A stretch of 64,000 bases of DNA, taken from assembly GCA_965140785.1 (NCBI GenBank), contig OZ223475.1:235814-299813 (forward strand), given 5' to 3'. Below the pieces are notes generated by a model, which was not told where the DNA came from, did not search any database, and was given only the letters and a program-made list of their open reading frames with translations. This stretch comes from an uncultured Ruficoccus sp. (GTDB lineage Bacteria; Verrucomicrobiota; Verrucomicrobiia; Opitutales; Cerasicoccaceae). The position numbers were made by a program, and so were the translations under genes. Positions 4,801 through 57,159 of the stretch are shown in pieces (the first letter of the stretch is position 1; each line of letters begins with the position of its first letter).

Positions 4801-5400
4801 GATAGAGTCACCTTCGGTACGTGAAGCTGTCAGGTGGCCATCTTTGTAGGTCAGGAAACGGCGCTTGGCGGGAGATGTGCCACGCTGGATGGTCTCGGTG
4901 ACATTTACGCTGTCGCCGTCTACGGAGTAGGTATAGGTGGTGGTTTCCGTTTCGTCACCATCATGGCTGTTCACCCGAGTGAGGCGCCCGGCATCGTCAT
5001 AAGCGTAGGTCTTCTCACTTTTTTTCTCTCGGTATTTTGAGATTTCTTTGACGAGTCGTCCATCACTGTAGGTGTAGTCTGTGTCGCGGCCAGCAGGGTA
5101 GGACACACGGGTGACGTTTCCCTCGACATCCGTTTGCCAGGTGACGGAGCCTTTGCCGGTGGGAAGGCCGTCCTCGTAATACACGTAGCTGTTCTCCTTG
5201 ATGAGCAGGCCGTCCTCATCGAAGACCATCTTGTCCGCAGAGAAAACCGGGCCTTTCAGGTTAAAGTGCTCAGCCTTGTATTTGACTGGAATCGGGTTCA
5301 TGGGAGCATTGCTCCAGTCAACCTTTTGGGCGAAAACTGCACCTCCCGGAATAATCCAGACGAGAGTTGCCACGAGGGAGAGCGCATTTCTAATGGGCAT
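1864..5400 (-). CDS. Large secreted protein (1178 aa) with two YD/RHS-like repeat modules
   Basis: Signal peptide ending AVFA-Q; YD-type repeats (YTYSDGRLVKE, YAYDDAGRLTRV, YQFDEYGNP, FEYDNDRRLV, YMNDDYGNP); internal duplication. Confidence 0.75.
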   Translation of the reverse strand: MPIRNALSLVATLVWIIPGGAVFAQKVDWSNAPMNPIPVKYKAEHFNLKGPVFSADKMVFDEDGLLIKENSYVYYEDGLPTGKGSVTWQTDVEGNVTRVSYPAGRDTDYTYSDGRLVKEISKYREKKSEKTYAYDDAGRLTRVNSHDGDETETTTYTYSVDGDSVNVTETIQRGTSPAKRRFLTYKDGHLTASRTEGDSIELKVEYQFDEYGNPVKWVHAQNNGVRDEFSARYQYYPDLQQRNELAYGAVRKDSVTPVSVFRNGQIAEDVVFGVRSDKSEILVYDDFDKSYYRVPTGSDLKPSERLPVTELIMKGTDTIAFLNGSNIEPYYAGRSVFKGSKNKAVMTTNGGILTYSVDQTFFSSDSLYFDRESGQKVLPGRLLETSRRLHGRHLFYVVGNKGELELFRFGERIENPIGMKKGKTNGTDLVLYNNSGDPYDFFDYVLPNALSKPVPGIYPARYLDKEKENVEPLPDDFQLDLQPPAAASVGTRETVPSYSQQDVAALYTFTPEEKSSYVRPYVNLTDAPLNPRPYVGSLYDLNWDGDIAYLRYDDQDMYFDEDGTRFDPTNRYFTDEETAQREKGIYRLFDNGRKLLLQKPTVGTVWDVDAIYKYNPDGTVRNSYFINNGQLIEVCTFEYDNDRRLVKFLRQRGKTNITISHSYEKVDGQLHVLTKVQGLGDEITRRSVFGNGRLVSEIEDQGSSHSEKTYQYMNDDYGNPYVSLDQDGKEIEKRHYYHSDTWRMDRWHWLNEKHYDAYRPYVYAYDRQAGPIDVNSGNDSPFAHGVFYEPVGQNYMIAENALLPETVKNPDARGKMQVKVSSPAMLYLTKSGQFRLYDHGQILGGLKQFMRGNTLILFDGKRGHTFQVQGFQQGEDKFFHAEDLGRDVAVWYQSPDKKKFSLFFNGGTPDGKLTPGGAYPNGDALVLKDGQPWGILEANDLKRPGKIHRMVPYDNRGRPGQAPPPPKNPQEVIQPYAYGVPVTLKREAGKYRFYQNGKQIVEPKTFVVGDSGNAFAFYDTTTYHLFKQAKGVPDGESLLEEKMIIDPILVENSGSETRVWQKGEPVPKDEYSLFSCDNGERFLYVQKGAEACVLKAEGSYLNYQNASRVGNPDVLIKNKDDFIYVVRGVAQPTEEVTLYPDKGKIIVYIESDPTHVIDDIGSLDELTPGIYSLSHFTY

Positions 5401-6376: not shown

Positions 6377-7159
6377 TCAGGGAGAGGATATCGGGATGAG
6401 CAGGCTGTTCCAGCGGGTCATGGCCTTGTTGGTGGGATAAAAGACGCACAGCGCCCGGCTCTGGTCCCGAATCGGCCAGTGGCGGCGGTACACGAGCTTG
6501 AATTTATCGTCCTCGTCAATGGCGGCCATGACCTGGAATTGCTTGGGTTTTTCACCCATGACATTAATCAGGTTGCCTTCCCGGGGCTTGAGGGTCAGGC
6601 GCTGGTTTTGGGTGGCTACCTGCAAGGGGCGGCTGCCTAGATTGAAACCGTAAACGCTGCCGCGGGGAAGATGGCTTAAATCGACAGGCAGCGGATAGAG
6701 GGCGGCGGGTTGATTGCCCAGCGAATCCTGCCCGAGCAGAAAGTACGTGCCCTGACCGGCGGGCAGGCGGCAGCCCAAGCGGGGTGCATACGTGTCCTCC
6801 TCCTCGGCGGTTGCTGCGGGAATGCGCTCGTAGAGGATGAATCCGCGGGGACCCCGGTAGTGGATGGTGGGGCTGATCTTGTTGCTGACGAGTTCGAGGG
6901 GGCGGTATCCCTCCGGCGTCCAGTAGTAATACTCCCGGGATCGACTGCGGTACTCGCGCGGCATTTCATCCCCGCTGGCCAGGTTGATGGGCGGTGTGTA
7001 GCGGTGCAGTAAGATACTGACTTCCGCAGTGACCTCCGGCGTGGTTTGGGCATGCAGAGGCGTGAGCAAGGCGAGCAGGCAGGCCATCGCACCGGCCAGC
7101 AGAAAGAGGCCTGGATGGGGGGCGAGGCGGGGAGGGCGCGGGTATGGGTTAAATCTCAT
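6377..7159 (-). CDS. Secreted hypothetical protein (260 aa), overlapping the stop of the PilX-like gene
   Basis: Signal peptide (LLALLTPLHA-Q); 11-nt overlap with the upstream gene implies one operon; no catalytic motif recognised. Confidence 0.7.
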   Translation of the reverse strand: MRFNPYPRPPRLAPHPGLFLLAGAMACLLALLTPLHAQTTPEVTAEVSILLHRYTPPINLASGDEMPREYRSRSREYYYWTPEGYRPLELVSNKISPTIHYRGPRGFILYERIPAATAEEEDTYAPRLGCRLPAGQGTYFLLGQDSLGNQPAALYPLPVDLSHLPRGSVYGFNLGSRPLQVATQNQRLTLKPREGNLINVMGEKPKQFQVMAAIDEDDKFKLVYRRHWPIRDQSRALCVFYPTNKAMTRWNSLLIPISSP

Positions 7160-10100
7160 GGTTGTCGAGCCAGCGGAAGGAGACGACGACGAAGCGTCGA
7201 TTGTTGGAGCCGGGAGTTAACTCGTCGGGCTGGCGCTGGACGACCAGTTCGCAGCGCGCGGTGGCTTCGGTGCTCCCGGTCAGCGGGTTGACGGACTCGC
7301 CGTAGGCACGGATGGTGAAGGTGTCTGAACGCGGGGAGAGCGCGGCCCCCAGGCGGGAAAGCAGGTTGCCCTGGGTAAGATAGCCGGGCTGGCCGTAGGA
7401 GAGCGAGCCCATGCCGGTATAGCGGTTGAACTGGTCGAACATGTTCAGCTCGTTGTAGCTGATGGAGTTGCTGTCGTCCTCGTAGCGGTCGTTGACGATG
7501 GAGGCCTCCAGTGCAGCCTGAAGCGCCCCGATAGCGCGCTCGCGATTGTCTGCACTGAGGACGAGGTTGGCGTTCTCACGGCTGGAGAGAAAGTCCGCGT
7601 CATCAATGACCCGGTTGACGAAGTGCGCCATCGAGGTGAAGGGGCCGCGCTTTTTGACCTGCTTAACGATTTCCTGCGCCAGGCTGTCGATCTCGGCCGC
7701 GTTGAGCGTGCGAAAGCCCGCGTAAGTCTGGGCGTCTTCCTCGTCGGCGGTGTCGGCATCACCGAGAAGGGGATCGAGGTTCTGGAGATAGGGCGCGCGG
7801 GTGTCGTAGGCGGTGGTATTGACGGTGGCGCCGACCGTACCGGCTAACAGCGCCCGCCAGGCGTCCACGGAGGTGGAGTTGACGTTGAAGGCGCCGTTGA
7901 CCATGAGCGCGGCGGCAGCGTCCTCGTAGGAGGTGATCTGTGCCGCGGTCGCTCCCGCTAGCGGTACCAGGCGCGGATTGAGCATCGCCCCGGTATTGGT
8001 GTCGTATTCGGCGAAAAAGTAGCGGTCCCACAGGTAGTCGTTGAGCAGGTAGGACCAGTCGTAGATGAGCGAACCAGGGTCACTGGAGAGGTACTTGGCG
8101 GTCTTGTAGGTATGGCGGCTACGCTCATCGAGCGGGACGCCGAGCGGGGCGAGGGAGTTGCCGATGGCGAAAGCCGGGTAGCTGCTGTTGAGGTTCCAGT
8201 CCGAGCCGCTCGAAGAGAAGGCAACCAGGTAATCCTCCACGGAGTTTGTCCGGGGCATGGGCGGGGCCAGCGAGGCGTGCATGAGCGAGCCGACGGACTG
8301 GAAGTACTCAGGGCCGCCGGGCAGGTCGAAGAGCGTGTCCTGCGTGATGAACGAGCTATTCGTATCGTCGGTGAAGCCGACCGTGGGTTGCGTATATGTC
8401 AGCGACGAGTAGAAGCGGCCCCAGTCTTCCGAGTCACTACCGCGCATGGTTGTCTGGGACGAGCCCATGCTGTCGGAACGGTTTCCAGACCAGCTCAGGT
8501 AAAGCGAGTTATAGCGCGTGTCGCCGTCCTGAGTTTGTTCGATGGGGGTGCGGTCGCTGCGCGCGGCTCGGGGATTATAGGAAGCGAGGGTGGAGACGAT
8601 GGGGGTCGGGGAGGGGCTCCCCGGATAGGTGACCGGGGACAGATTCTGCACCCAGCGAAAATGCTGCGTGAAACCGAGAATGGGGAAATAGTTGTCACCG
8701 CCGAGCGCAGCCAGCGGCAAAGCATCCCAGGGCGTGGTGGCGTCCGAGGCGAAGGAGGGGATCGCTGTGGGAGAAACGGCCCACTCAGGGGACAGCACGG
8801 AGCTGCCGGAGGTTTTGCCCAGATTGGACTGATTGAAGCCGGAGATGTCTTGGAGGGGGCCCTGGCTGATCATGTCCGCCAGGTTTCCATTGCCCACGTC
8901 GAGACCGAGCCCAACATGCAGATAGCTGATACCCGTGGTTCCACTGTCCGAGACGAGCCGCAGGACGAAGGGCAGGCCGGTTTTCGGGGGAACACCGGCG
9001 ATGGCAACAGGGTCAAACCGGTCGCTCAGTTCCGAGTAAAAATAGCCGCCAGAGACGAAGCCGGGGGCCGAGGCATCGACCAGCGGGCTTCCGTTGCCGC
9101 TGGCCCAGTTCTGAGGCTGAACGGAGCCCGGGAGAAAGAGTTTGGCCTCGCCGGGCCCGAAGGCGCTGCTGATGTTGAAGCGGAATGCGCCGCGATTTTG
9201 GGAGTCGTCGGCGCCCTCGAAGATCGTTCCCGGCGCCCAGGTGTGGGTGGTGCCGTCGGCATCGGTCCACTCGACCTGTGGCGTCCAGTTGTATTTGATC
9301 TTGTTGCTGTTCGTGGTGAGGAAGAGGTTGTAGTCGGTGCTCGGAAGGGCGACGTTGTAGGGGTTCCACAGCACGACCGCGGGAAAGAACATCAGGCGCG
9401 CGATGTACTGCTGGTTGGCGCCGGGGGCTTTCAGCAGCAGCAGGTGCATGTGCATCTGGATGACGGTAACGATCGGGCCGACGCCCATCTGCGTGTTGGT
9501 CTGTGGCTGTACAGAGACGGTGTCGCCCCGCAGTCGGTAAAAGCTGCGCAACTGCTCCCAGGGCGGACCGCCGGGGTCGCGGCGTTTGTTGGTTGAACCA
9601 CTGGCCCCGCGTGCGGCGTCGGAGTCGCGCGGGTCGTAGGGCTCGGCCTGGTCGCGGTGCCCGAAGACCAGGTTGCCGTGTTCGCTTTTGAGCGTGGCGA
9701 AGTCGTCGGTGTTGCTAAAAGCGGCGCTGAGGTTGCGCTTGAGGCCACCCTCGCGCACATCGGCCAGCACCCCGAGCGAGAGCGAGGTCAGGTCATGGAA
9801 GTGATTGGCAATCAACTCCTGCCCCTCACCGCTGTCGAGGCCTGCCTGCTGCAAGAGCAGGAGCAACTGGTTCAATCCGCCCGCGCGCTCGAGCAGTTGG
9901 GTGTAGGAGGCATCGGTATGGATCGAGCCGAGGTCCTGCAGGGGGGACAGATCGTAGAGTGAATCGTTCTCCTCGATCAATTCGGGAGCGGTACGGGTGG
10001 CGGCGAGGGCGGCGATGGCCGCGTCCCGGGATTCGTTGCTGCGGGCCCAGGGGTTGTCCATGGCCAGGCTGGCCTTGACGCCGTCGTCGGCCACCCACCA

Positions 10101-10730
10101 GGCGTACTTGCCGCTGATGTCGCCGTCGGCGTCGCGTATCTGCTGCGGGGGCAAGTAGATATTACGCGGGTCAGCGGGGTCCGAGGCATCGACCAGCAGG
10201 AGCGGGACGTCGGTCTCGCTGCGGGTGTTGTTCAAGGGATTGGCTCCCGGTGTACTGACCAGCCAGGCGAGCGCGCCGCCGGGATTGCCGAGACCGTTCT
10301 TGATCGGTGCGGGGTTCTGGTGCGCATCACCGCCGGTGCCATTGTCGGCATCGTCCGGATCGGTGATCCAGACGCCGGTCCAGTAGGGTTCATCCAGGCC
10401 GGTTATGGCCTCGGTCTCGGGAGTGTCGTCCAAGATCCCGGCCCGGGCCGTTACCCGTTGGTCGGGGCCAGCTGTTTGCTGAAGTTCGCCCAGCGCCAGC
10501 ATGGCGCTGAAAAGCGCGAGCTGTCGGGCCTCGGTTTGCTGGGCCGCCACGGAGCCCTGGAGCGTTCCCATCTGCACCAGCGTGGACAGGCTGAGCATCA
10601 ACATGAGAATGAAGACCATCAGCGCCAGGGAGATGATCAGCGCAAAGCCGCTGGTGCGTCGGCTCAGGTGTCGGCGCCCGCGGGGAAGACTCTGCGTCAG
10701 GGAGGAAACGGGATAGGGCAGGAGCGTCAT
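7149..10730 (-). CDS. Large PilX/GspK-like minor pilin protein (Verru_Chthon cassette protein A-like), ~1193 aa
   Basis: Prepilin-type cleavage site RRTSG/FALIISLALMVFILMLML, then ARQLAL..ALGELQQTAGPDQRVTARA and C-terminal AFNVNSTSVDAW...GPFTSMAHFVNR...RSDTFTIRAYGE...ARCELVVQR. Start codon choice is uncertain. Confidence 0.8.
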   Translation of the reverse strand: MTLLPYPVSSLTQSLPRGRRHLSRRTSGFALIISLALMVFILMLMLSLSTLVQMGTLQGSVAAQQTEARQLALFSAMLALGELQQTAGPDQRVTARAGILDDTPETEAITGLDEPYWTGVWITDPDDADNGTGGDAHQNPAPIKNGLGNPGGALAWLVSTPGANPLNNTRSETDVPLLLVDASDPADPRNIYLPPQQIRDADGDISGKYAWWVADDGVKASLAMDNPWARSNESRDAAIAALAATRTAPELIEENDSLYDLSPLQDLGSIHTDASYTQLLERAGGLNQLLLLLQQAGLDSGEGQELIANHFHDLTSLSLGVLADVREGGLKRNLSAAFSNTDDFATLKSEHGNLVFGHRDQAEPYDPRDSDAARGASGSTNKRRDPGGPPWEQLRSFYRLRGDTVSVQPQTNTQMGVGPIVTVIQMHMHLLLLKAPGANQQYIARLMFFPAVVLWNPYNVALPSTDYNLFLTTNSNKIKYNWTPQVEWTDADGTTHTWAPGTIFEGADDSQNRGAFRFNISSAFGPGEAKLFLPGSVQPQNWASGNGSPLVDASAPGFVSGGYFYSELSDRFDPVAIAGVPPKTGLPFVLRLVSDSGTTGISYLHVGLGLDVGNGNLADMISQGPLQDISGFNQSNLGKTSGSSVLSPEWAVSPTAIPSFASDATTPWDALPLAALGGDNYFPILGFTQHFRWVQNLSPVTYPGSPSPTPIVSTLASYNPRAARSDRTPIEQTQDGDTRYNSLYLSWSGNRSDSMGSSQTTMRGSDSEDWGRFYSSLTYTQPTVGFTDDTNSSFITQDTLFDLPGGPEYFQSVGSLMHASLAPPMPRTNSVEDYLVAFSSSGSDWNLNSSYPAFAIGNSLAPLGVPLDERSRHTYKTAKYLSSDPGSLIYDWSYLLNDYLWDRYFFAEYDTNTGAMLNPRLVPLAGATAAQITSYEDAAAALMVNGAFNVNSTSVDAWRALLAGTVGATVNTTAYDTRAPYLQNLDPLLGDADTADEEDAQTYAGFRTLNAAEIDSLAQEIVKQVKKRGPFTSMAHFVNRVIDDADFLSSRENANLVLSADNRERAIGALQAALEASIVNDRYEDDSNSISYNELNMFDQFNRYTGMGSLSYGQPGYLTQGNLLSRLGAALSPRSDTFTIRAYGESVNPLTGSTEATARCELVVQRQPDELTPGSNNRRFVVVSFRWLDNHEI

Positions 10731-10889
10731 GGGACAGGCCGGGCCATTGAGGCGAACACCGCTGGGGCAGTCAGGCATTCGACAGTATAGTATCGGAGCT
10801 TGAGGGATAGGATTAACCACAAGCGGGCAGACCGGAGTCTGCTCGCGCATGCCCCGAATGAGGTAAAAAGGGTAAGGATGAAAACGCTA

Positions 10890-49560: not shown

Positions 49561-49774
49561 ACCCCATGACCGGCCTTTGAGGTAAGTCTCGATCAGCACA
49601 TCTCCCAAGCCGTTTGCCATCGAGCAGGACGGCTGTGTGGTCGGAGTACTCATGCCGTACGAGGTCGGTTGCGATCGGTGCCCCTTGGCTGTCAGTTTCT
49701 GGTAAATCGTCGCCTCCATGTGCCGGTTCCTTTCAACTCAGTGATCGCAATAGATGCGCCCCGTGCCCGCAGGC

Positions 49775-50410
49775 TCAAGTGGTGCCAACGAGTTCACGGG
49801 CTATGTCAACGGCGGCTGCGGCATCGCGGGCGTAGCCGTCGGCACCGATCTCACGGGCGAAGGCTTCGGTGATCGGAGCGCCGCCCACGATGATGCAAGT
49901 GTCGGCCAGACCGGATTCTCGGATTTGCCGTACGGCCTCCTTCATGCTGGCCATGGTGGTGGTCAGCAGGGACGACAGGCCGATCAACTGAGCGTCGTTG
50001 ACTCGCGCCGCCTCGACGAACTGCTCGGGCGACACGTTGGTTCCCAAGTCGATAACTTTGAAATTCGCGCCCTTCCACATCATGGTTACGAGGTTTTTGC
50101 CGATGTCGTGGAGGTCGCCCTCGACGGTGCCAATGACGGCGGTGAACTGTTGCTTGATCCCGGCTGCGGCCAGGTGCGGCTCCAGTAACTCCATGCTTTT
50201 TTTCATGGCGCGGGCGGAGACCAGGACCTCCGGCACGAAGATCTCGTCGGCTTTGAAGCGGCGGCCCACATCGTCCATCCCCTCCATGAGCGCGCTGAGG
50301 ACCGTTTCGGGCGGGTCACCCGCGTCAATGCAGGTCTGGGTGGCGGCCATCGCCTCCTTACCCCTGCCGGTTTTAATCGCTTCGGTGATTGTGCTGAGTG
50401 TTTCGTTCAT
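49775..50410 (-). CDS. Corrinoid (cobalamin-binding) protein of a methyltransferase system (MtbC/MttC-like)
   Basis: Cap domain (GMDDVGRRF..EIFVPEVL) and B12-binding GTVEGDLHDIGKNLV, SSLLTTT, VGGAP. Confidence 0.92.
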   Translation of the reverse strand: MNETLSTITEAIKTGRGKEAMAATQTCIDAGDPPETVLSALMEGMDDVGRRFKADEIFVPEVLVSARAMKKSMELLEPHLAAAGIKQQFTAVIGTVEGDLHDIGKNLVTMMWKGANFKVIDLGTNVSPEQFVEAARVNDAQLIGLSSLLTTTMASMKEAVRQIRESGLADTCIIVGGAPITEAFAREIGADGYARDAAAAVDIARELVGTT

Positions 50411-50446
50411 CAGTTTTTCAAGGCTGTGTGTTGGGGGTGAGCAGGT

Positions 50447-51613
50447 TCAGTCCAGGCCCGCCCAGATTTTGCGGGCACATTCGATATAAAAGACGTAATT
50501 GCTGAGGGGAACGTCCGGTGGCACGCGATGATCACAGAAGGGAATGTAGCCGCCCTCTTCGACCAGCGGGGCCAGACGGCGGACCTCTGCCTCAATGGCG
50601 GCGGGGGAGCTGGCCAGAATGCGTTTATTAAAACCGCCCATCATTCGCAGGTCCTTGCCCCAGCGGCGGCGTAGCGCGACCGGGTCCTGCTGCCAAGTAC
50701 CGACTTCGAGGGGAAACATGATGTTGACCCCGGCCTCCAGCCACAGCGGGATGAGGTCGTCGATTTTACCGTCGGAGTCAACCCAGGCGAACTCGGTCCC
50801 GTGCCGGTGAGCGACCGCCATAATCCGCTTGTAGAAGGGGATGAGGTAGCGCTTGAAATGCTCGGGGGAGAGCAGGGGGCCGGCGTTGTAGCACATGTCT
50901 TCCCAGAACGCGATGGCCTCGAACTGGAGGCCGTCCGCGTAGGCTTTTTCCAGGCTGGCGCAGCTACAGTCGGCAAGCCTTTCGATGATTTCCTCAAATA
51001 GCACCGGATCGTCGTAGACGAGGTAGGAAACCTCCTCGACGCCCATCCAGTCACGCACCTTGCCATAGCTGGAGCCGCCGGGGGCGGACAGGACGGTGCT
51101 GCGCTCCGGTGCGGTCCAGCGCGGCAGATTGGCCGTGTACTCGGGGGGGAAGCGGTTGGGGGTGTCCGGGTCCAGACGCCACCGGAAATGCTCCTCCCAG
51201 GAAGCCCGGTCCACCAGCGTGTGGTTCAGGTACATGGGGATCGATCCCATGGTTTTCTGCCGCAAGAGCTGCACACCATCCCTGTTTTGGCACACCTCGG
51301 TATCGCCGCGATCCTCCAGTACTTTTTCTTCAAAGGCGGGGCACAGGCCGACTTCGAAGTTCGCTCCCTCCCGCTCATCCATGCCGAAGAAGCGCGTGAA
51401 ATCCTGGTGCCACTCGCCCGTTGAGGTGACCTGCCATCCTTCGCTTTTCCACTTGTCGAAGGTCTCGATCCACAGACCGAAATCCCACAGAGGCATCCGG
51501 TCCCGGCTTTCATAGCGCATCGTGGCCAGAAAGCGCTCGCGGTCCCGCATCGTGCCGGGAGCTTTGGTATAGGGGGCGATCTGATCAGGGGCAAAAACAG
51601 CATTCGTTTCCAT
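50447..51613 (-). CDS. Uroporphyrinogen decarboxylase (URO-D/MtaA) superfamily protein, putative corrinoid methyltransferase
   Basis: RERFLATM, RDWMGVEE, WEDMCYNAGPLLSP, VDSDG, GGYIPFCDHRVPPDV; adjacent to the corrinoid protein gene. Confidence 0.8.
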   Translation of the reverse strand: METNAVFAPDQIAPYTKAPGTMRDRERFLATMRYESRDRMPLWDFGLWIETFDKWKSEGWQVTSTGEWHQDFTRFFGMDEREGANFEVGLCPAFEEKVLEDRGDTEVCQNRDGVQLLRQKTMGSIPMYLNHTLVDRASWEEHFRWRLDPDTPNRFPPEYTANLPRWTAPERSTVLSAPGGSSYGKVRDWMGVEEVSYLVYDDPVLFEEIIERLADCSCASLEKAYADGLQFEAIAFWEDMCYNAGPLLSPEHFKRYLIPFYKRIMAVAHRHGTEFAWVDSDGKIDDLIPLWLEAGVNIMFPLEVGTWQQDPVALRRRWGKDLRMMGGFNKRILASSPAAIEAEVRRLAPLVEEGGYIPFCDHRVPPDVPLSNYVFYIECARKIWAGLD

Positions 51614-51647
51614 GCCTCTATCCTACCATAAGCAGCGTCGATAAAGG

Positions 51648-51685
51648 GATAGAACCGCCGGCTAAAAAACTGGATTATCCTGCTA
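51648..51685 (-). promoter_or_regulatory. AraC-type tandem half-sites upstream of the UroD-like gene
   Basis: Minus strand TAGCAGGATAATCCAGT-N4-TAGCCGGCGGTTCTATC, the 17+4+17 layout of E. coli araI1/araI2. Confidence 0.7.
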
Positions 51686-51742
51686 GGCTGTTTTTGATAG
51701 TAGAACCAGTGCTCAGCCTTTTTGCCGCTAGGGATGTCTGCT

Positions 51743-52537
51743 TCAGGTGCGTTCGGATCGGGGGGCGTGTCCGAAAACCTTTTTGTAGCGCCGGGAAAAA
51801 TAAAAGGCATCCACGAAGCCCACCTCCTCCGCGATCTGGTTGACGGGCAGCCTCGTTTGCTGGAGGAGCCGTCGGGCATCATCCAGCTTTAGTGTTTCGG
51901 CAAACCATCCCGGGCTGACACCCAGCTCATCTGTAAACAGATGAGACAAGCGTGAAGGAGAGAGTCCGCAGCGATAGGCCAGATCTGGGAGCGAAAAGGG
52001 CTCGCTGGTATGAGTGGCAAGATAGTGCATGGCCTTTCGGACGCGTCCATCCACCTGCGCCCCCGGGTCTCCGGACGCCAGGGCATACCCCCGGATCAGG
52101 ACTTCCTCCAGGGCATTCATGGCGAGGTCGTCTTTACTGGGGCCACCCAACCGGAAGGAGACCAGCATGCGCTCAAGCGCCTCCCATACCTCGGCCATGT
52201 TCTGGTTTGCGAAGGATATATGGTGCGTGCCGGGAGCGATTTCGGGCCAATCCATCCAGACGCGCCAGTACGGCTTGGCCACGAAATGGCTCCAACATAA
52301 GTGCCAGAAGCCGGTTTCGGCATCCGTCGAGTAGTCCTGAAAGGCATCCGGTTCGAAGAGAACGATGGCCCCCTCCTGTAAATGAAAGGGTTCTCCGGTG
52401 GGCAGGATGAGCCGACCCCTTCCTCCGAGGGTGGCGATGAGCAGCCAGTCCCCGCTGCCATGCGGCCGCCGGGTGCTGTAGCTGCGTCCCTCGCGGAACT
52501 CATTGCAGGTAATGGGGTCCGGTATCTGGTGTTTCAT
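51743..52537 (-). CDS. AraC-family regulator, closely resembling the arabinose regulator AraC subfamily
   Basis: RPHGSGDWLLIATLGGRG, W.HF...YW..W sensor domain; LSPSRLSHLF and VGFVDAFYFSRRYKK HTHs. Confidence 0.9.
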   Translation of the reverse strand: MKHQIPDPITCNEFREGRSYSTRRPHGSGDWLLIATLGGRGRLILPTGEPFHLQEGAIVLFEPDAFQDYSTDAETGFWHLCWSHFVAKPYWRVWMDWPEIAPGTHHISFANQNMAEVWEALERMLVSFRLGGPSKDDLAMNALEEVLIRGYALASGDPGAQVDGRVRKAMHYLATHTSEPFSLPDLAYRCGLSPSRLSHLFTDELGVSPGWFAETLKLDDARRLLQQTRLPVNQIAEEVGFVDAFYFSRRYKKVFGHAPRSERT

Positions 52538-52553
52538 GCGGGAAGTTTTTTAT

Positions 52554-52591
52554 TAGCATAATAATCCATGTATATAACGGCCCTGTCCATT
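52554..52591 (+). promoter_or_regulatory. AraC-type tandem half-sites upstream of the dioxygenase gene
   Basis: TAGCATAATAATCCATG-N4-TAACGGCCCTGTCCATT, followed by a -10-like TATAGT at 52613. Confidence 0.7.
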
Positions 52592-52626
52592 CCCTTTTTT
52601 CGGCATTTGTCTTATAGTGTTCATTA

Positions 52627-53454
52627 ATGAAAATACTGAACGATTCCCACCTTCTCACTGCCGATCATCTCAACCAATACCAAACCGAGGGCTATTGCGT
52701 GGTCTCAGGATTGTTTGAGCCGGAGGAAATCTCGGCCATTGAGGCATTCTTCGAGGAGTACAAAAACAACGGCAAGGCCGTGTATGACCAAGGGGCGAAG
52801 TTCGAGGATATCGACCCGGCCAAGCGGCAGCTGCGGGCCCTCCATCCACATCGTTATAGCCGCCAGGTGCAGGACTGGGCGCTGCGACCCCGGCTGATCA
52901 GCGCCTTGACAAAACTGCTGGGAAGCTCTCCGCTGCTGGCCCAGACCATGTACTACTTCAAGCCGCCCGGCTCCCGCGGCCAGGCCATGCACCAGGACAA
53001 TTTTTATCTTCTGGCCGCCCCGCATACCTGTATCGCCGCCTGGACGCCGATCGATGATGCCACCGTGGAGAATGGCTGCCTCTATCTGGCGCCTCGCTCC
53101 CATCACAAGGACATCTACTGCCCGAAGGGAGACGACCCGGGCTGGCGCAGCTATGGAGACGGTCATATCCGACCTTTCCCCCGCGAGTTTGAGCCCATTC
53201 CGGTCGAAGTGCCGCGCGGCTCGACGCTCTTTTTCGGCGGTAACCTCATCCACGGTTCCGGCCCCAACCGCAGTGCCGACCGCTGTCGCCGGACCTTTAT
53301 CGGCCATTATGTAGATCAGGCCAGCGAGGAGGTGGCCGGCTTCTACCATCCGATTCTGAACGCCGCGGGTGAGGCTGTGAGCCGCGTACGTAAAAAGACC
53401 GGCGGCGGTCCCTGTGGAGATGTGCCCGGCGGCGACTATTCCTACTCGTTCTGA
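52627..53454 (+). CDS. Phytanoyl-CoA dioxygenase (PhyH) family Fe(II)/2-oxoglutarate dioxygenase
   Basis: YFKPPG, HQD, AWTPID..ENGCL...SH, IHGSGPNRS..R. Confidence 0.9.
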   Translation: MKILNDSHLLTADHLNQYQTEGYCVVSGLFEPEEISAIEAFFEEYKNNGKAVYDQGAKFEDIDPAKRQLRALHPHRYSRQVQDWALRPRLISALTKLLGSSPLLAQTMYYFKPPGSRGQAMHQDNFYLLAAPHTCIAAWTPIDDATVENGCLYLAPRSHHKDIYCPKGDDPGWRSYGDGHIRPFPREFEPIPVEVPRGSTLFFGGNLIHGSGPNRSADRCRRTFIGHYVDQASEEVAGFYHPILNAAGEAVSRVRKKTGGGPCGDVPGGDYSYSF

Positions 53455-53525
53455 GCAGGAGGCGAGTCCGCCCGGCGCGGACCGTTTCCTGAAGGTTCCC
53501 AATCTTCCTCCCGCCGACGCCGGCC

Positions 53526-54404
53526 TCAGCCCTTGGCAGCCGCCAAGGTGCTGACGCGCCGGCGAAAGGCGCGGGGGCTTTCGCCCACCTGGCGCAGGAA
53601 TTGGCGATTGAAGTGCGAGAGGTTGTTGAAGCCGTTCTGAAATGCGATCTCGGTGATCGGCGCTTCGGTTTCGATCAGCTCCCGGCGTACCTGGCTGATG
53701 CGGTAGGCGTTGAGGTAGCGCGAGTAGGGCATGTTCAGATACTTGCTGAAGGCATGGCTGAAGGCTGAGGCAGACATGCCGACCGAGCGCGCCAACTCCG
53801 TCTGGTCGAGCCGCTCGCGGTAGTGCCGGTGAAGGGTCTCGAGCGCGGTGGACAGGCGCTGAAACCCGGCCTGGTCCGCTGTCGGCTGATAGGACTCCGA
53901 GGCGAGCGGACGGACGTTTTTTTGCGCGGCCAGATGCTCCAGCAGTTCCAGCCAGCCGAGCAGGCGCTTGAGGCCCCGGGCCTTGAAGGTACGTGTCAGC
54001 AGCCGGGTGGCTTTGGGGTCGACCTCGGGCCCGAAGAGCAGCCCCCGCCGCGCTCGCTGGAGCAGGGCTTTAAGGTGCCGGGTCTCGCGCTGGGAGAAAA
54101 AGCTCTCGCCCAGGCAGTCGGGGCGAAACTGGATGACCCGCGAGCGAGCCCAGTGGCTCGAGCCGGGCGGGGCGGGGCGGTTTTCAAAGAGGTGGGGCAG
54201 CCCCGCGCCCAGCAGGTACCACTGCCCGGCCTCATACTCCCCAAAGGTGTCGCCAATGAGCATATTGCCATCGCTGCTGTCGATCCGCAGGATCTCGCAC
54301 TCGGGGTGAAAGTGGTAGGGGCAGTCGTAGTCCTGCGATGAGAAAGACAAACAGACCAGTGAACTGTCGTCGGAAGTGGGAATCTGCTCGTATTGGGCTC
54401 TCAC
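53526..54404 (-). CDS. AraC-family regulator with a cupin domain
   Basis: YHFHPECEI, LPH, IQF; EIAFQNGFNNLSHFNRQF; GTG start. Confidence 0.9.
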   Translation of the reverse strand: MRAQYEQIPTSDDSSLVCLSFSSQDYDCPYHFHPECEILRIDSSDGNMLIGDTFGEYEAGQWYLLGAGLPHLFENRPAPPGSSHWARSRVIQFRPDCLGESFFSQRETRHLKALLQRARRGLLFGPEVDPKATRLLTRTFKARGLKRLLGWLELLEHLAAQKNVRPLASESYQPTADQAGFQRLSTALETLHRHYRERLDQTELARSVGMSASAFSHAFSKYLNMPYSRYLNAYRISQVRRELIETEAPITEIAFQNGFNNLSHFNRQFLRQVGESPRAFRRRVSTLAAAKG

Positions 54405-54520
54405 GGTGGGTTCTTACGGTAAATTCTTAGCATGTGTTCAAAATAGTATCAATAATTTAGCGGATAGCCGTAGTTCTTTTTGGGGCGGGCGGATATGATC
54501 TGAGCCGTCAATCACTCCAT

Positions 54521-56035
54521 ATGCCCCTCGACTCCCAACTCTCCGCCCAAGGCGTGCTCAACGACGTGCTGGCCGATCTGGTCCCCGCGCCTCCGAAGCC
54601 CCCACGCGCCCGTATCGCCGTCATCGGTTGCGGCGTTAAAATCCATTTCCCCTGGCAGCGGACCTGCGAGCGCACGCGGCAGGCGGTCGCTCTCACCCAG
54701 AAGGGTGCCGACGGACTGCCGGTGGATATCATCGCCGCGGAGGAACCCTTTGAAGACCCGGAGGCGATGGTGGCTTTTCTAGACAGCGAGCTGGCCCAAG
54801 GCCTGGCTGGGCTGGTCTTCTTCCATGCGGCCTTTACCGCAGGGGAGGTCGGTTCGGCATTAGGGCGCTGGCTCATTGACCACCCGGTTCCGCTGCTGAG
54901 CTGGGCTTGGCCCGAGCCCGGCAACGGCGCACGCAACGAAGCCAACAGCCTGACTTGCCAGAATTTCATCCTCCAGATGCTGACCAGCCTGGGTGTCCCT
55001 TATGCATGGCAGCACCTGCCACTGGACAGCTCGGCAGTGCCCCCGTTGGAGCGCTTCGCCCGCGCCTGCTATGCGCGTAACGGTTTCCGTCGTGCCAAGC
55101 TACTTCACGCCGGGGGCTCGCGGGTGAGCGGGTTTTACGACGGCGAGGTGGACGAACTGGCGGTGTTCAAAGCGTTCGGCTGCCGCTTCGACCGGGTGGA
55201 TCTGGAAACTGTTTACCAACACGCCGGTAAGCGTTTCAAGGACGCGGACGTGAAGCGCCTCGTAGAGGCGCTGACCAGTCATCCGGCCTGCGGGCGGGTG
55301 GACGTGCCCGCAGAGCAGATGATGCAGACCTACCGCTTCGGTCTGGGCATGCTCGATCTGGCCCATGAGCACGGCTATCTCGGCGCCACCGTGAAAAGCT
55401 GGCCCGACCTCTTTGACTGCTACGGCTGCGCTATCGACGGCTCCGTTTCCATGCTGAACGACGCGGGCTTCTGCGTGGCCGAGGAGGGCGAGATGAACGG
55501 ACTGCTCTCCTCGCTGGCGCTTTTCCTTGTGTCAAGTGGGGAGGCCGTGCCGACAATGATGGACCTGTCTCTGTGGAAACAGGCGCAGGACCGGCTCGGC
55601 ATCTGGCACTGCGGGGCTTCACCCACCCGCTGGCTTAAGCCCGGCTCAACTTTCGCCGCCACCCGTCACTCCATTCTCGAAAACGGCGATCCGGAGACGG
55701 CGGTTGGGCTCATGCTGGAATTTCTGCTCGCCCTAGGTCCTGTTACGGTCGCGCGTTACCTGGCGCCGGACGCCGGACGCTGCTTTAGTTTTGAGGGCGA
55801 GTTCGTCGAGACGGAGCTGGATTATCGTGGTACTTATGGGCTGATGAAGGCCACCGGCGAGACCAGCCTCGGGCAGATCATGCACACGATCCTGAGCCGC
55901 GGTCTCGACCACCACTGGAGCGTCGGCCACGGCCACTGGCAGGAGGAGCTTCGCCTGCTCAACCACTTTTGCGGTATCACGGAAACGCCCCTCTTGCCCG
56001 CCGAAACCCCTTACGGCCTCAGTGCCGGTGCCTGA
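54521..56035 (+). CDS. L-fucose/L-arabinose isomerase family protein
   Basis: WAWPEP, NSLT, KSWPD, EGEMNG, WHCG, GLDHH motifs of the FucI/AraA fold. Confidence 0.75.
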   Translation: MPLDSQLSAQGVLNDVLADLVPAPPKPPRARIAVIGCGVKIHFPWQRTCERTRQAVALTQKGADGLPVDIIAAEEPFEDPEAMVAFLDSELAQGLAGLVFFHAAFTAGEVGSALGRWLIDHPVPLLSWAWPEPGNGARNEANSLTCQNFILQMLTSLGVPYAWQHLPLDSSAVPPLERFARACYARNGFRRAKLLHAGGSRVSGFYDGEVDELAVFKAFGCRFDRVDLETVYQHAGKRFKDADVKRLVEALTSHPACGRVDVPAEQMMQTYRFGLGMLDLAHEHGYLGATVKSWPDLFDCYGCAIDGSVSMLNDAGFCVAEEGEMNGLLSSLALFLVSSGEAVPTMMDLSLWKQAQDRLGIWHCGASPTRWLKPGSTFAATRHSILENGDPETAVGLMLEFLLALGPVTVARYLAPDAGRCFSFEGEFVETELDYRGTYGLMKATGETSLGQIMHTILSRGLDHHWSVGHGHWQEELRLLNHFCGITETPLLPAETPYGLSAGA

Positions 56036-57159
56036 TGCCGGTCGATTTCACAGCGTTGGCCGGGCGCCTGAAAGCCGCCGCTTCCGTGCCCGCGGCGACG
56101 TCGGTTGTGGCCGGATTTGACGCGTTCGTCGATGAGCGCATCCACGTCGTTCACGAGCGCCATAGCCCGGAGTCTTTTACGCCGGTGGCGACGATTTCGG
56201 ACTTCTCGGACTGGGCAGCCCGCTCGGCGGGACGCAGTGGCCTGCGAGAGTTTGTCTTCGAAACCGAGGCCGGCGGTTGCACGGTCAACATGGGCGACGG
56301 CATCGCCACGCTGGGCTTCCCGCTAACGGCTTTTGCCGGGGTCGGCAGTCCCGCCCATCCGGTTTTCGCGGACTTCATCGGTAAATGCGCGGTGGTCGAA
56401 CCGCTCGGGATGGAGCCGGGGCGCGCCCTGGCTTACGAGTTCGAGGACGGCAAGCTGATGTTCTGCGCGTTCAACCACTTTGCGCGACTGACGCCGGAGT
56501 ACCTGCGCGGGCAGTTTGCTGACGGGCGTTTCCGCGCCGCCTGCGGAGCGAGCCGGGGCATCGTGTTGACCAGTTGGTCCGTCTATCCGCACATGACGGT
56601 GTGTTGGCGATACCTGTATGAAGAGGCGCTGGCCGGACTGACGAACCGGCCCCGCTTTTTCTTCGATCTGGCCGACCCGGCCAGTCGCCCGCGTGCGCAA
56701 TTGTCACAGATGTTGGATACGCTCGGCGGCTTTGAGACCATCGGCCCCGTGACCCTGAGCCTGAACGGCAATGAGGCCAACCAACTGGCGCAGGCAGTCG
56801 GCCTGAACGAGGCCGACGAGTCACCGGAACAATTGGAGCGCCAGGCGACTCAGTTGCGTGAGCGGGCGGGCATTGATTGCGTTGGCATCCATCTGGTCAA
56901 GTCCGCCGTCGCCGCTACAGAAGCGGGCGCGGTCAGCGTCGAAGGCCCCTTCTGCGCCAAGCCCAAGAAAAGCGTCGGCGCGGGCGACCGCTTCAACGCC
57001 GGGTGGCTCAGCGCGCAGCTACTGGACCTGCCTCCAGCGGAGCAACTGGCGGTGGGCTGCGCCAGCTCCGGCTTTTTCGTTCGACAGGCCCGCAGCGCCA
57101 CGTGGGCGGAACTGAGTGAATTTCTGAGTGCCTGGGGGGAGGGCACCCCCAACGCCTGA
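56035..57159 (+). CDS. PfkB/ribokinase-like carbohydrate kinase
   Basis: GFDAFVD, GG...N, FFDLADP, LNGNEA, C-terminal VGAGDRFNAG; TGATG overlap with the upstream gene. Confidence 0.8.
   Translation: MPVDFTALAGRLKAAASVPAATSVVAGFDAFVDERIHVVHERHSPESFTPVATISDFSDWAARSAGRSGLREFVFETEAGGCTVNMGDGIATLGFPLTAFAGVGSPAHPVFADFIGKCAVVEPLGMEPGRALAYEFEDGKLMFCAFNHFARLTPEYLRGQFADGRFRAACGASRGIVLTSWSVYPHMTVCWRYLYEEALAGLTNRPRFFFDLADPASRPRAQLSQMLDTLGGFETIGPVTLSLNGNEANQLAQAVGLNEADESPEQLERQATQLRERAGIDCVGIHLVKSAVAATEAGAVSVEGPFCAKPKKSVGAGDRFNAGWLSAQLLDLPPAEQLAVGCASSGFFVRQARSATWAELSEFLSAWGEGTPNA

Follow-up and report, generated by a model that had tools for sequence, protein, structure and literature searches.

How a bacterium could place an oxygen-dependent enzyme and a vitamin B12-dependent enzyme under one sensor is the question raised by a locus in a 64,000-nucleotide (nt) stretch of DNA from an uncultured Ruficoccus sp. 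(GenBank assembly GCA_965140785.1, contig OZ223475.1, positions 235,814 to 299,813), hereafter called the window. At this locus, a gene for a regulator of the AraC subfamily lies between an operon for a uroporphyrinogen decarboxylase-like (UroD-like) protein and a corrinoid carrier protein, and a divergent gene for a PhyH-family Fe(II)/2-oxoglutarate (2OG) dioxygenase. A preliminary description of this DNA had proposed that gene set and had placed, before both transcription units, a tandem site of two 17-bp half-sites, 4 bp apart, at almost the same distance from the ATG; the genes are where it put them, with Pfam matches that agree, and the quoted sites are present letter for letter, 34–35 nt from their start codons (Table 1). 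The tandem sites are real and far beyond chance. It is very probable, to judge from the sequence, that an AraC-type regulator governs both the PhyH unit and the UroD-like/corrinoid unit by predicted binding to these sites. The best explanation for the distribution of the genes is that the sensor and PhyH form an ancestral, self-contained unit to which UroD-like genes have been recruited several times.

One simple explanation for two such sites would be coincidence: they could be chance look-alikes or relics, with AraC regulating PhyH alone or nothing. A loose pattern, TAGC-N7-TCCA, is not significant alone, its three matches in the window (1.3 expected) being equalled in 13 of 100 shuffles. 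A degenerate I1 pattern with two mismatches at most has just these two sites as its matches in the window, where 0.09 are expected, a count reached by none of 100 shuffles. The sequence TAGCNNRATAATCCA occurs twice in the 4.36-Mb genome, both times at this locus, and its reversed control does not occur at all. When a matrix of 38 columns, built from seven sites of other genomes with the window sites excluded, was run over both strands of this genome, the two window sites ranked first and second (40.1 and 35.7 bits); the next score was 22.9, and the scan revealed no further regulon members in the source genome. These ranks, together with the equal geometry of the sites before three UroD-like genes and in front of PhyH at 8 of 13 further loci, make coincidence extremely unlikely. 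Since the sites are unique in the genome, the proposal of a single AraC-type regulator for both promoters, by predicted binding, is supported.

The regulator resembles Escherichia coli AraC in both of its halves. Its best NCBIfam model by far is PRK10572 (AraC), matched over residues 20–261 with 167.7 bits (E 2.4e-49; curated cut-off 208); its DNA-binding domain matches the E. coli AraC chain 2k9s (E 9.5e-19), and its N-terminal half matches the arabinose-binding domain 2arc (E 1.4e-11) and also 2ara, with E of about 1e-11. Like E. coli AraC, it combines a cupin sensor with two helix-turn-helix (HTH) motifs, and the HTH1 stretch LSPSRLSHLF, which holds the first recognition helix, is identical in the two proteins, HTH2 being close. 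An alignment with K-12 AraC and nine orthologues gives an identity to E. coli AraC of 30%, with S193, R196, H199, and F201 invariant in the 11 sequences. All 11 sequences agree at the positions of E. coli R38, Y82, and W91, and 10 of the 11 at that of W95; R38, Y82, and W95, along with H93, are presumably residues by which E. coli AraC contacts arabinose. What sets the regulator apart from AraC is the low identity, the score below the cut-off, and two features of the sensor, namely the lacking arm and the replacement of H93, which are weighed below.

The promoters share the design of E. coli pBAD. The likeness of the sites to araI1 and araI2 is confirmed on the K-12 record, where the operator reads TAGCATTTTTATCCATA agat TAGCGGATCCTACCTGA (araI1–araI2): in both organisms, two direct 17-bp half-sites starting with TAGC stand 4 bp apart, the operator adjoins the −35 region, the regulator gene is divergent, and the −10 hexamer is nearly in register after I2. 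In pBAD, TACTGT occupies nt 21–26 after araI2; in the PhyH promoter, TATAGT occupies nt 22–27 after I2, within one base of that register. The two systems differ in that the araB ATG lies 61 nt after araI2, whereas the ATG lies 33–36 nt past I2 here (at nt 36 in the PhyH promoter), and in that the targets here are an oxygenase and a presumed B12 methyltransferase rather than the genes of arabinose catabolism. More widely, the first ATG comes 32–36 nt after the second half-site in three UroD-like promoters and in most PhyH promoters (in the window, 51613 and 52627; elsewhere, loci L096, L115, and L050). With RNA polymerase placed as at pBAD, transcripts would begin at the start codon or within a few bases of it, so that the PhyH and UroD-like mRNAs are probably leaderless or near-leaderless. 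The −10-like hexamer of the UroD-like promoter, TAGGAT, was not picked up by a consensus promoter scan of positions 49600–53700, the single match of which (1.0 expected by chance) is the promoter-like sequence TGGACA-17-GATTAT; autoregulation of araC from this promoter, which lies inside the I1/I2 site, is possible. As for the start of the UroD-like protein, its N-terminal extension of 21 residues is conserved only in the closest orthologue, the residue aligned with M22 being the first one in most homologues.

Table 1. Genes, half-sites, and promoter-like elements of the locus (positions in the window; aa, amino acids).
Feature	Position	Strand	Remarks
Corrinoid (B12) carrier protein, stand-alone	49775-50410	-	211 aa; PF02310 1.2e-26 and PF02607 4.5e-18; second gene of the UroD-like operon
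UroD-like protein	50447-51613	-	388 aa; PF01208 3.8e-14, 52.9 bits, profile positions 161-345 only; candidate substrate-specific corrinoid methyltransferase (MT1)
AraC-subfamily regulator	51743-52537	-	264 aa; HTH_18, HTH_AraC, AraC_binding
PhyH-family Fe(II)/2OG dioxygenase	52627-53454	+	275 aa; PF05721 1.5e-34, 120.6 bits against a cut-off of 22; divergent from AraC
Tandem site, UroD-like promoter	51685-51648	-	4-bp gap; then 34 nt to the ATG at 51613
Half-site I1, UroD-like promoter	51669-51685	-	TAGCAGGATAATCCAGT
Half-site I2, UroD-like promoter	51648-51664	-	TAGCCGGCGGTTCTATC
Tandem site, PhyH promoter	52554-52591	+	4-bp gap; then 35 nt to the ATG at 52627
Half-site I1, PhyH promoter	52554-52570	+	TAGCATAATAATCCATG
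Half-site I2, PhyH promoter	52575-52591	+	TAACGGCCCTGTCCATT
-10-like hexamer TAGGAT, UroD-like promoter	51620-51625	-	putative; nt 23-28 after I2; register as TACTGT of E. coli (nt 21-26 after araI2)
-10-like hexamer TATAGT, PhyH promoter	52613-52618	+	putative; nt 22-27 after I2, 8 nt 5' of the ATG
Promoter-like TGGACA-17-GATTAT, directed into araC	52561-52589	-	weak; inside the I1/I2 site of the PhyH promoter

The four-gene cluster of the preliminary description is not conserved in other genomes; the conserved unit is the AraC–PhyH pair. This divergent pair is present in all four loci fetched around AraC homologues of relatives. In a sample of 401 genomes of the phylum, to which the counts of PhyH-positive and UroD-like-positive genomes refer, PhyH orthologues (E ≤ 1e-40) are found in 16, and an AraC-family gene adjoins PhyH in 12 of the 23 loci around PhyH homologues, two of the 12 regulators being only about 23% identical to the window AraC. 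A scan of both strands of 13 further AraC–PhyH loci, with a matrix built by coordinates from five sites, placed the top-scoring 38-mer of the entire locus upstream of PhyH in all 13. The first in-frame start codon follows I2 by 32–36 nt in eight of these, and the first candidate start is at 15, 17, 17, 25, and 53 nt in the other five. What else surrounds the pair varies by genome, with housekeeping, integrase, restriction, and glycan genes and no relation between the loci, which suggests that AraC–PhyH behaves as a self-contained module of sensor plus enzyme. A conserved AraC–PhyH module in Verrucomicrobiota with a fixed, probably leaderless promoter design is new. Two genomes, G256 and G432, carry four to five PhyH paralogues each (L061, L064, and L071–L077), some in tandem and with 40–47% identity to the window PhyH; no AraC-family gene was found within their 1.5-kb flanks.

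The sites themselves are conserved beyond the source genome, the wiring recurring in three gene arrangements: five genomes have the UroD-like gene as part of this regulon, in three ARRANGEMENTS. In the source genome, the UroD-like gene stands behind its own copy of the operator beside AraC–PhyH. In genome G008, whose AraC and PhyH share 57% and 63% identity with the window proteins, a UroD-like orthologue of 72% identity lies unlinked on another contig; its promoter contains TAGCATAAAAGGCCATG cgaa TAGCCGAATATTCCATT, which ends 33 nt 5′ of the ATG, with one extra half-site upstream. (L003 is identical DNA, counted with G008 as one genome.) The other two close pattern matches in G008 have no credible second half-site. 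In G024, the UroD-like (56%) and corrinoid (65%) genes are adjacent to each other and on a different contig from AraC–PhyH. Their promoter contains CAGCAGAATAGTACAAG tttt CAGCGCGAAAAGCGATT, a tandem nAGC...nAGC ending 35 nt 5′ of the ATG; this site, with its six mismatches, was found by reading the upstream DNA, a scan with the PhyH I1 of the same genome at five mismatches or fewer having missed it. In G268 and G117, finally, a UroD-like gene (35–40% identity, by different searches) lies directly 3′ of PhyH. The inspection of UroD-like promoters for operators took in the source genome, G008, G024, and G154, with G195 outside its scope. The three kinds of PhyH-linked UroD-like genes fall on separate branches of the family tree (a quick IQ-TREE run, with support from the Shimodaira–Hasegawa-like approximate likelihood ratio test only), which argues that the linkage of UroD-like genes to PhyH arose more than once. 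That the sensor of an O2-dependent enzyme has repeatedly gained control of a B12-dependent one as well would be the second novelty of the system.

Since PhyH and then a UroD-like gene share an operon in G268 and G117, another possibility is that PhyH and the UroD-like/corrinoid pair act consecutively in one pathway, for example with a demethylation followed by hydroxylation of the product. This is unlikely: 10 of the 16 PhyH-positive genomes are without a UroD-like gene, 79 of the 85 UroD-like-positive genomes are without this PhyH, and most loci have AraC–PhyH by itself, with unrelated housekeeping genes around it. The occurrence of each enzyme alone suggests that each is functional without the other, and alternative routes fit this better than consecutive steps.

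What kind of enzyme, then, is the UroD-like protein? It covers only the C-terminal half of PF01208, with no full-length match of the HemE type, and no NCBIfam family matches it at E ≤ 0.01, hence no curated methyltransferase model does. A separate, full-length, canonical hemE (374.9 bits) lies elsewhere in the source genome, which has no other UroD paralogue besides. Two roles were rejected: one in haem synthesis, given this hemE, and one in methanol use, given that no MtaB was found in the 90.85%-complete assembly. The family is a large one, with 2245 proteins at E ≤ 1e-20, the best 120 of which are labelled "uroporphyrinogen decarboxylase (family protein)" or "hypothetical" or are unnamed.

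An AlphaFold2 model of the UroD-like protein, made from 31 homologues, has a predicted local distance difference test (pLDDT) score of 90.7. By Foldseek, it resembles UroD and the MtaA of Methanosarcina mazei (4ay7/4ay8) about equally, with E of 1e-11 to 1e-9 and template modelling (TM) scores of 0.6–0.7; cobalamin-independent methionine synthases come next. Sequence and profile searches of the PDB returned only decarboxylases, with weak E-values, and MtaA was not found by them. The likeness to Methanosarcina MtaA consists of the barrel fold (Foldseek E about 1e-9; TM 0.60–0.63 by query length and, by target length, 0.71 for 4ay8 and 0.67 for 4ay7) and of conserved residues at the ends of successive strands; the differences are an identity of 13% and the absence from the UroD-like protein of the His-x-Cys...Cys zinc motif of MtaA. 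The residues invariant in 31 sequences are W237-E238-D239-x-C241-Y242, D279-x-D281-G282, E303, K330, and D361-H362, and in the model they lie just past successive strands (275–279, 298–302, and around 356–361). The "DSDG" and "CDH" motifs singled out in the preliminary description fare unequally: D279, D281, G282, and the D361-H362 pair are invariant, and the middle residue of the first motif is S or C, but C360 of CDH varies (C/P/V/T/E/G). D279-x-D281, E303, and D361-H362 stand where, we assume, MtaA has its zinc ligands His-x-Cys, Glu, and Cys, and one hypothesis is that the two sets are equivalent. The suggestion that the protein belongs to a distinct subfamily agrees both with these acidic and His residues in place of the expected zinc motif and with the lack of an NCBIfam methyltransferase match. 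A large unnamed UroD-like family in which acidic and His residues would take the place of a thiolate zinc site is, in itself, new. No use of coenzyme M is known from bacteria of this phylum.

The corrinoid carrier has the cap and Rossmann domains of its kind, with the DxHxxG, SxL, and GG motifs (D99-x-H101-x-x-G104, S146-x-L148, and G176-G177, invariant in 13 homologues). Its nearest NCBIfam models are MtgC/MtbC/pyl_corrinoid, all under cut-off (TIGR02370, 171.7 bits against 215.3). In the 401-genome sample, the UroD-like protein (E ≤ 1e-45) is found in 85 genomes, a stand-alone corrinoid protein (E ≤ 1e-35) in 180, and the activase RACo in 153. The corrinoid protein is present in 83 of the 85 UroD-like-positive genomes, against 97 of the 316 without a UroD-like gene; because related genomes are not independent, the Fisher p-value overstates the strength of this co-occurrence, but the effect is still large. 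RACo is likewise present in 83 of the 85, the two exceptions being the source genome and one genome that is 87% complete. The UroD-like and corrinoid genes are 6 kb apart or less in at least 14 genomes, with gaps of less than 100 bp in, for example, G024, G188, and G400. A model of the complex of the two proteins scores 0.78, against 0.00 for the best of three controls. Among solved complexes, 116 of 157 reach this mark, which is a confidence of the model and not a measurement; among mismatched pairs, 2 of 215 do. At least 63% of contacts are shared between the runs, and the partner has a pLDDT of 82 or more. The modelled interface (enzyme residues 192–200 and 242–249; carrier residues 55–67, 103–110, and 195–198) involves family-conserved residues: on the UroD-like protein it coincides in part with the invariant YNAGPLLS stretch, and on the carrier with the stretch that follows DxHxxG.

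The co-occurrence and the complex model support the proposal that the UroD-like protein and the carrier form a B12 methyl-transfer module. The UroD-like protein is likely to be the substrate-specific methyltransferase MT1, which would pass a methyl group from a small molecule to the Co(I) of the corrinoid protein, as suggested by the genome association, the fold, and the modelled complex. An alternative is that it is a decarboxylase, or some other barrel enzyme with a role in sugar metabolism, and lies next to a corrinoid gene by accident. It would fit this alternative that the sequence matches in the PDB are uroporphyrinogen decarboxylases and not MtaA, that Asp, Asp, Glu, and Asp-His would serve as metal ligands, in contrast to the His/Cys/Cys of MtaA, and that 22 of 28 homologue loci are without a corrinoid gene in the flank. 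The 83 of 85 co-occurrences with both the corrinoid protein and RACo, the adjacency in at least 14 genomes, the complex score relative to its controls, and the separate canonical hemE nevertheless make it very improbable.

The proposed assignment as an MT1 is made by analogy with characterised systems. In PMC13391211, the bacterial MTII, the methyl-corrinoid:tetrahydrofolate enzyme, is given as about 30 kDa, with MTI as the substrate-specific partner; in PMC8630106, the MT1 enzymes for methoxy-aromatics share one tree with the MtaA/CmuA family. MtvABC of Moorella, MtoABCD of Methermicoccus, and Odm of Acetobacterium/Desulfitobacterium resemble the present module in joining an MT1 of the UroD/MtaA superfamily to a small two-domain corrinoid protein, in their association with a RACo-type activase (here at genome level), and in that related clusters hold several MT1 paralogues per carrier. 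They differ from it in that the operon here has only the presumed MT1 and the carrier, with no MT2 or activase found in the assembly, in that the host has a haem-copper oxidase, in that the module is co-regulated with an O2-dependent dioxygenase, and in that no curated methyltransferase model is matched.

Several loci of other genomes show related gene sets, and the fuller clusters, in G024 and in Phycisphaeraceae, have the composition typical of corrinoid methyltransferase systems. In L144 (G154:C4:88000–106000), one corrinoid gene lies amid six UroD-family paralogue matches in 18 kb, with a RACo match at C4:96398–97150. In L145 (G024:C4:150000–166000), the UroD-like and corrinoid genes are accompanied by a strong URO-D paralogue, a CobW-like GTPase, another URO-D paralogue, and RACo, with three sulfatases flanking; the position of the GTPase between URO-D paralogues hints at metal delivery to one of them. 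L004 and L017, both from Phycisphaeraceae, have MtaB, a corrinoid protein, and four UroD-family paralogues (L004 also has an AraC-type regulator and DUF1638), a set that looks like a one-carbon (C1) system for methanol or methyl ethers in Planctomycetota. RACo or a MetH-type Hcy domain is found in L013 and L019.

The source assembly is 90.85% complete. It has a second stand-alone corrinoid gene, 60% identical to that of the window, which is cut by the end of the 4-kb contig C31 (L085, 2451–4083) and is preceded by a divergent AraC-type regulator, with ribonucleotide reductase fragments adjoining; partner genes that are missing from the assembly may lie beyond the end of this contig. The genome encodes a haem-copper oxidase, which implies that the organism is able to respire oxygen.

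The PhyH protein has the iron triad H122-x-D124...H209 and the 2OG-binding R221, all invariant in nine orthologues; the intact triad and Arg point to an active hydroxylase rather than a halogenase. Its nearest solved chains by sequence are PHYHD1 and phytanoyl-CoA hydroxylase, and its nearest by fold are GriE (a leucine hydroxylase), the proline hydroxylase H11, EvdO2, AviO1, EvdMO1, SnoK, and SnoN. The last five, which are PhyH-family enzymes acting on sugar moieties, are among the nearest in fold or sequence and share the HxD...H triad; they differ from the window enzyme in having 17–24% identity to it and in serving antibiotic tailoring, whereas PhyH here stands by itself under a sensor of its own and looks catabolic. 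GriE and H11 score as high as these sugar-tailoring oxygenases. The best NCBIfam match of PhyH is methylphosphonate hydroxylase (59.5 bits, cut-off 500), and the ESM Atlas yielded only generic clusters of the "phytanoyl-CoA dioxygenase family".

What might a regulon of these two enzymes be for? A sugar-like effector is suggested by the likeness of the entire sensor to that for arabinose and by the location of the module among sulfatase and glycan genes: sulfatases flank it in the source genome, in G024, and in G117, and the adjacent glycan loci mentioned in the preliminary description are confirmed by the annotation of glycan-degradation genes around the window cluster. UroD-like homologues also have GH31, GH127, GH1, GH5, LacI, and sugar-transporter genes as neighbours. 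Sugar methyl ethers, such as 6-O-methyl-galactose, 2-O-methyl-fucose, and 4-O-methyl-glucuronate, block glycan catabolism. The proposed mechanism would start with a methylated, sugar-like compound, freed by the surrounding sulfatase and glycosidase loci, which would act as the effector of the AraC-subfamily activator. The latter would bind a pBAD-like operator ending 34–35 nt 5′ of the start codon before each of two transcription units, one for the PhyH Fe(II)/2OG hydroxylase and the other for the UroD-like methyltransferase and its corrinoid carrier. With O2, PhyH would hydroxylate the methyl group, and formaldehyde would leave; without O2, the UroD-like/corrinoid pair would transfer the methyl group to B12. 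Either route would lead to an ordinary sugar, and no further regulon genes would be needed. This dual-route reading would explain a regulon without a transporter or downstream pathway, a stand-alone unit of sensor and PhyH, and the occurrence of each enzyme without the other. Taken as a whole, an AraC regulon for the dual O2/B12 removal of a methyl group from a sugar-like compound is the best explanation, held at somewhat short of even confidence. That one substrate has two demethylation routes is a tentative suggestion, and that this substrate is an O-methyl sugar is a possible but rather doubtful one.

A different explanation keeps the regulon and both chemistries and replaces the sugar with another substrate, such as a methoxylated aromatic, a methylated phosphonate, or a methylated amine or sulfonium osmolyte. 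A wide range of small molecules is sensed by cupin domains of the AraC type. The PhyH match to methylphosphonate hydroxylase, though far under its cut-off, points this way, as do the Phycisphaeraceae orthologues of the UroD-like protein, which lie in general C1 clusters (MtaB, a corrinoid protein, and either RACo or DUF1638); and MtvB and MtoB, characterised MT1 enzymes of the UroD superfamily, use methoxy-aromatics, according to PMC8630106. On the other side, the entire regulator, beyond its DNA-binding part, is closest to the arabinose sensor, sulfatase and glycan genes are neighbours in the source genome, G024, and G117, and the annotated flanks contain no aromatic-ring catabolic gene. A non-sugar substrate is, on this balance, a doubtful alternative too.

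Several results weigh against the interpretation as a shared regulon for methyl removal from a sugar-like compound. Concerning the sensor, all ten AraC orthologues have L, I, or F at the position of E. coli H93, and the N-terminal arm of E. coli AraC (the first ~14 residues) has no counterpart here. Concerning the regulon, the genome-wide matrix scan found neither a transporter nor a sugar-catabolic gene in it, the UroD site of G024 is weaker (11 of 17 positions match the PhyH I1 of the same genome), and the UroD/corrinoid cluster of G154 is without a site at five mismatches or fewer. The UroD-like gene (E ≤ 1e-45) occurs in 6 of the 16 PhyH-positive genomes and is absent from the other 10 (Fisher p 0.12), so no genome-wide association of the two is seen. 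PhyH is found in none of 28 UroD-homologue loci, the four genes being together only in the source genome; an AraC-family gene is found in two of the 28, and a corrinoid gene within the flank in six (L004, L005, L013, L017, L018, and L019). Concerning the B12 route, the 90.85%-complete assembly has no RACo, MtaB, or MttB, no pterin-binding methyltransferase besides FolP and MetH, and no MetH-type activation domain outside MetH. Lastly, the PhyH model is moderate (pLDDT 70.7), and its closest structural matches include amino-acid hydroxylases no less than sugar-modifying oxygenases.

Elsewhere in the window, the region 53526–57159 begins with another AraC-family regulator (53526–54404, minus strand), which faces two genes. 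One encodes a 504-aa protein weakly like the sulfoquinovose isomerase SftI (91.1 bits, cut-off 700), and the other a prokaryotic ketohexokinase (PF25270, 157.6 bits), which together look like an isomerase–kinase pair for a sugar; their open reading frames (ORFs) overlap by 67 nt, which makes the TTG start of the kinase doubtful. ORFs of 1178 and 1233 aa at 1864–5400 and 7149–10850 have almost no Pfam signal, one of them having a single RHS-repeat match.

In marine Bacteroidetes, an oxidative demethylation of 6-O-methyl-D-galactose that yields formaldehyde is carried out by a cytochrome P450 encoded among algal-glycan loci, as reported in PMC6292453, PMC10033563, and PMC9400963. The enzyme families are entirely different, an oxygen-requiring P450 and its redox partners being used there. 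This was the only sugar O-demethylation found in open-access papers and preprints, in which no cobalamin or Fe/2OG route for methyl sugars was found, nor anything relevant on the UroD-like family in bacteria of the Planctomycetes–Verrucomicrobia–Chlamydiae group. An extension, which is unlikely as it stands, would be that the UroD-like family comprises unrecognised cobalamin-dependent O-demethylases for the methylated sugars of algal and plant glycans, coupled via AraC to an Fe(II)/2OG sugar O-demethylase in facultative Verrucomicrobiota.

Each part of the system belongs to a known kind, the switch to the AraC/pBAD type, the oxygenase to the PhyH family, and the other two genes to the corrinoid methyltransferase modules. 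Together, they make up a real and conserved regulon, of which the biochemical reading is attractive but unproven. With one sensor, two promoters, and three enzymes, the locus is a compact, testable system, and, the regulator being so close to E. coli AraC, reporter fusions should offer an easy way to screen for effectors. Through a common regulator, an oxygenase is connected here with a large, uncharacterised, B12-associated enzyme family. If the dual-route reading is true, the cell could strip the same blocking methyl group with or without oxygen; and even with a non-sugar substrate, it would be unusual for one sensor to drive both an O2-dependent enzyme and a B12-dependent one.

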